Assembly: GCA_034436195.1 (NCBI GenBank)
Contig: DAOTWS010000176.1
Location: forward strand, 113 to 64,112
Length of the DNA: 64,000 bases
From: Anaerolineae bacterium
GTDB lineage: Bacteria; Chloroflexota; Anaerolineae; Promineifilales; Promineifilaceae
Direction of reading: 5' to 3'
Text below: a report on this DNA, generated by a model with database tools, continued
The DNA itself: not shown here

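Follow-up and report, generated by a model that had tools for sequence, protein, structure and literature searches.

Distribution of the octamer within the window

The octamer reaches its highest density in the window in a copper-handling cluster (8239-15996), composed of three multicopper-oxidase-like ORFs (8239-9657, 9705-10979 and 10970-12952), a 187-aa ORF, CopC (13541-14059) and a CopC-CopD fusion (14026-15996). None of the three tandem HSP20/alpha-crystallin genes (162, 133 and 175 aa; 26060-27528) contains a copy, and the longest gap without the octamer (3.6 kb) extends from 36049 to 39625. A greedy ORF call at 36014-37376 was wrong, the public gene call on the same contig being a GlpX-type fructose-1,6-bisphosphatase (36341-37312, corresponding to 14311-15282 of locus L274). 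A second 18-nt perfect palindrome, GAGTAACGGCCGTTACTC, is found at 53014-53031, at the 3' end of a serA-like ORF, and its centre is the octamer site that the earlier note had listed at 53020 (53019..53026).

Avoided palindromes, and one with a small excess

The core hexamer CGGCCG is enriched, the opposite of what is observed for GGNCC-type sites and other 6-bp palindromes, which are strongly avoided in the window, in loci L002-L006 and L024 and in a phage contig (L172+L163+L210+L257). In the window, GGGCCC and GTATAC are absent (26.7 and 11.7 expected, respectively), TTTAAA occurs once (16.8 expected), CCATGG 9 times (32 expected) and CTGCAG 5 times (21 expected), all counted on one strand under an order-2 model, and on both strands, under an order-1 model, GGACC is found 26 times against 127 expected and GGGCC 64 times against 201. 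Most relatives also avoid GGGCCC and GGNCC, and the phage contig avoids GGGCCC, CCATGG and CTGCAG, as the window does. This avoidance implies that restriction systems, for example of the Sau96I/ApaI type, are active.

In Gaiellaceae and other Actinomycetota (loci L029-L071, about 70% G+C) the commonest palindromic octamer is CGAGCTCG, with 21-33 copies per 21 kb. It was rejected as a highly iterated palindrome and attributed to an ordinary codon or composition effect, because its excess is only 1.4-1.7-fold under an order-3 Markov model.

Mobile elements and associated methyltransferases

The highest octamer density observed (49 copies in 13.2 kb, 3.7 per kb) was in the final 13 kb of a 100-kb contig (L164, IMGVR_UViG_3300033417_000002). 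This element has genes for ParA, an Ant-like anti-repressor, a lytic transglycosylase and an FtsK/SpoIIIE-like ATPase, and so seems closer to a conjugative or plasmid-like element than to a phage that forms virions. The hexamer core is extremely dense in a prophage (L519-L521; NCBI MAG GCA_014584575.1, contig JACTMP010000070.1, and Logan contigs), with 186 CGGCCG in 20.8 kb (8.9 per kb; 41.5 expected). There are also 49 copies of ACGGCCGT and 15 of the NotI word GCGGCCGC in this prophage, and G...C flanks are likewise elevated in its lineage.

Members of a PvuII-like N4-cytosine DNA methyltransferase family (motif LLTSPPYPG; homologues P0001-P0076, genomic contexts L516-L522) are found repeatedly in temperate phages and prophages that are rich in the word, where they adjoin terminase or integrase genes (L237:7110-7952, plus strand; L248:9695-10996 and L269:4132-4980, both minus strand). 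One homologue (52%, L522) is located in a phage without the word.

Words of other lineages and of viruses

Two other Anaerolineae-like metagenome contigs, L130 (Ga0315533_1000021) and L117 (Ga0209986_10000098), show possible weaker excesses: 6 copies of GCTATAGC in 14.8 kb, where 0.4 would be expected, and 4 copies of TGCCGGCA in 17.8 kb, where 0.3 would be expected.

The hyper-abundant palindromes of sister lineages (MAG loci L007, L009, L010, L013 and L014) are different: TCGGCCGA, CCGGCCGG/CGGCCG and TGCCGGCA. Some of these words are also in excess in a few viral contigs (L377, L486 and L501), which have either TCGGCCGA (11 against 0.4) or TGCCGGCA (5-6 against 0.2-0.3) and no copy of ACGGCCGT, suggesting that the dialect of a phage follows that of its host.
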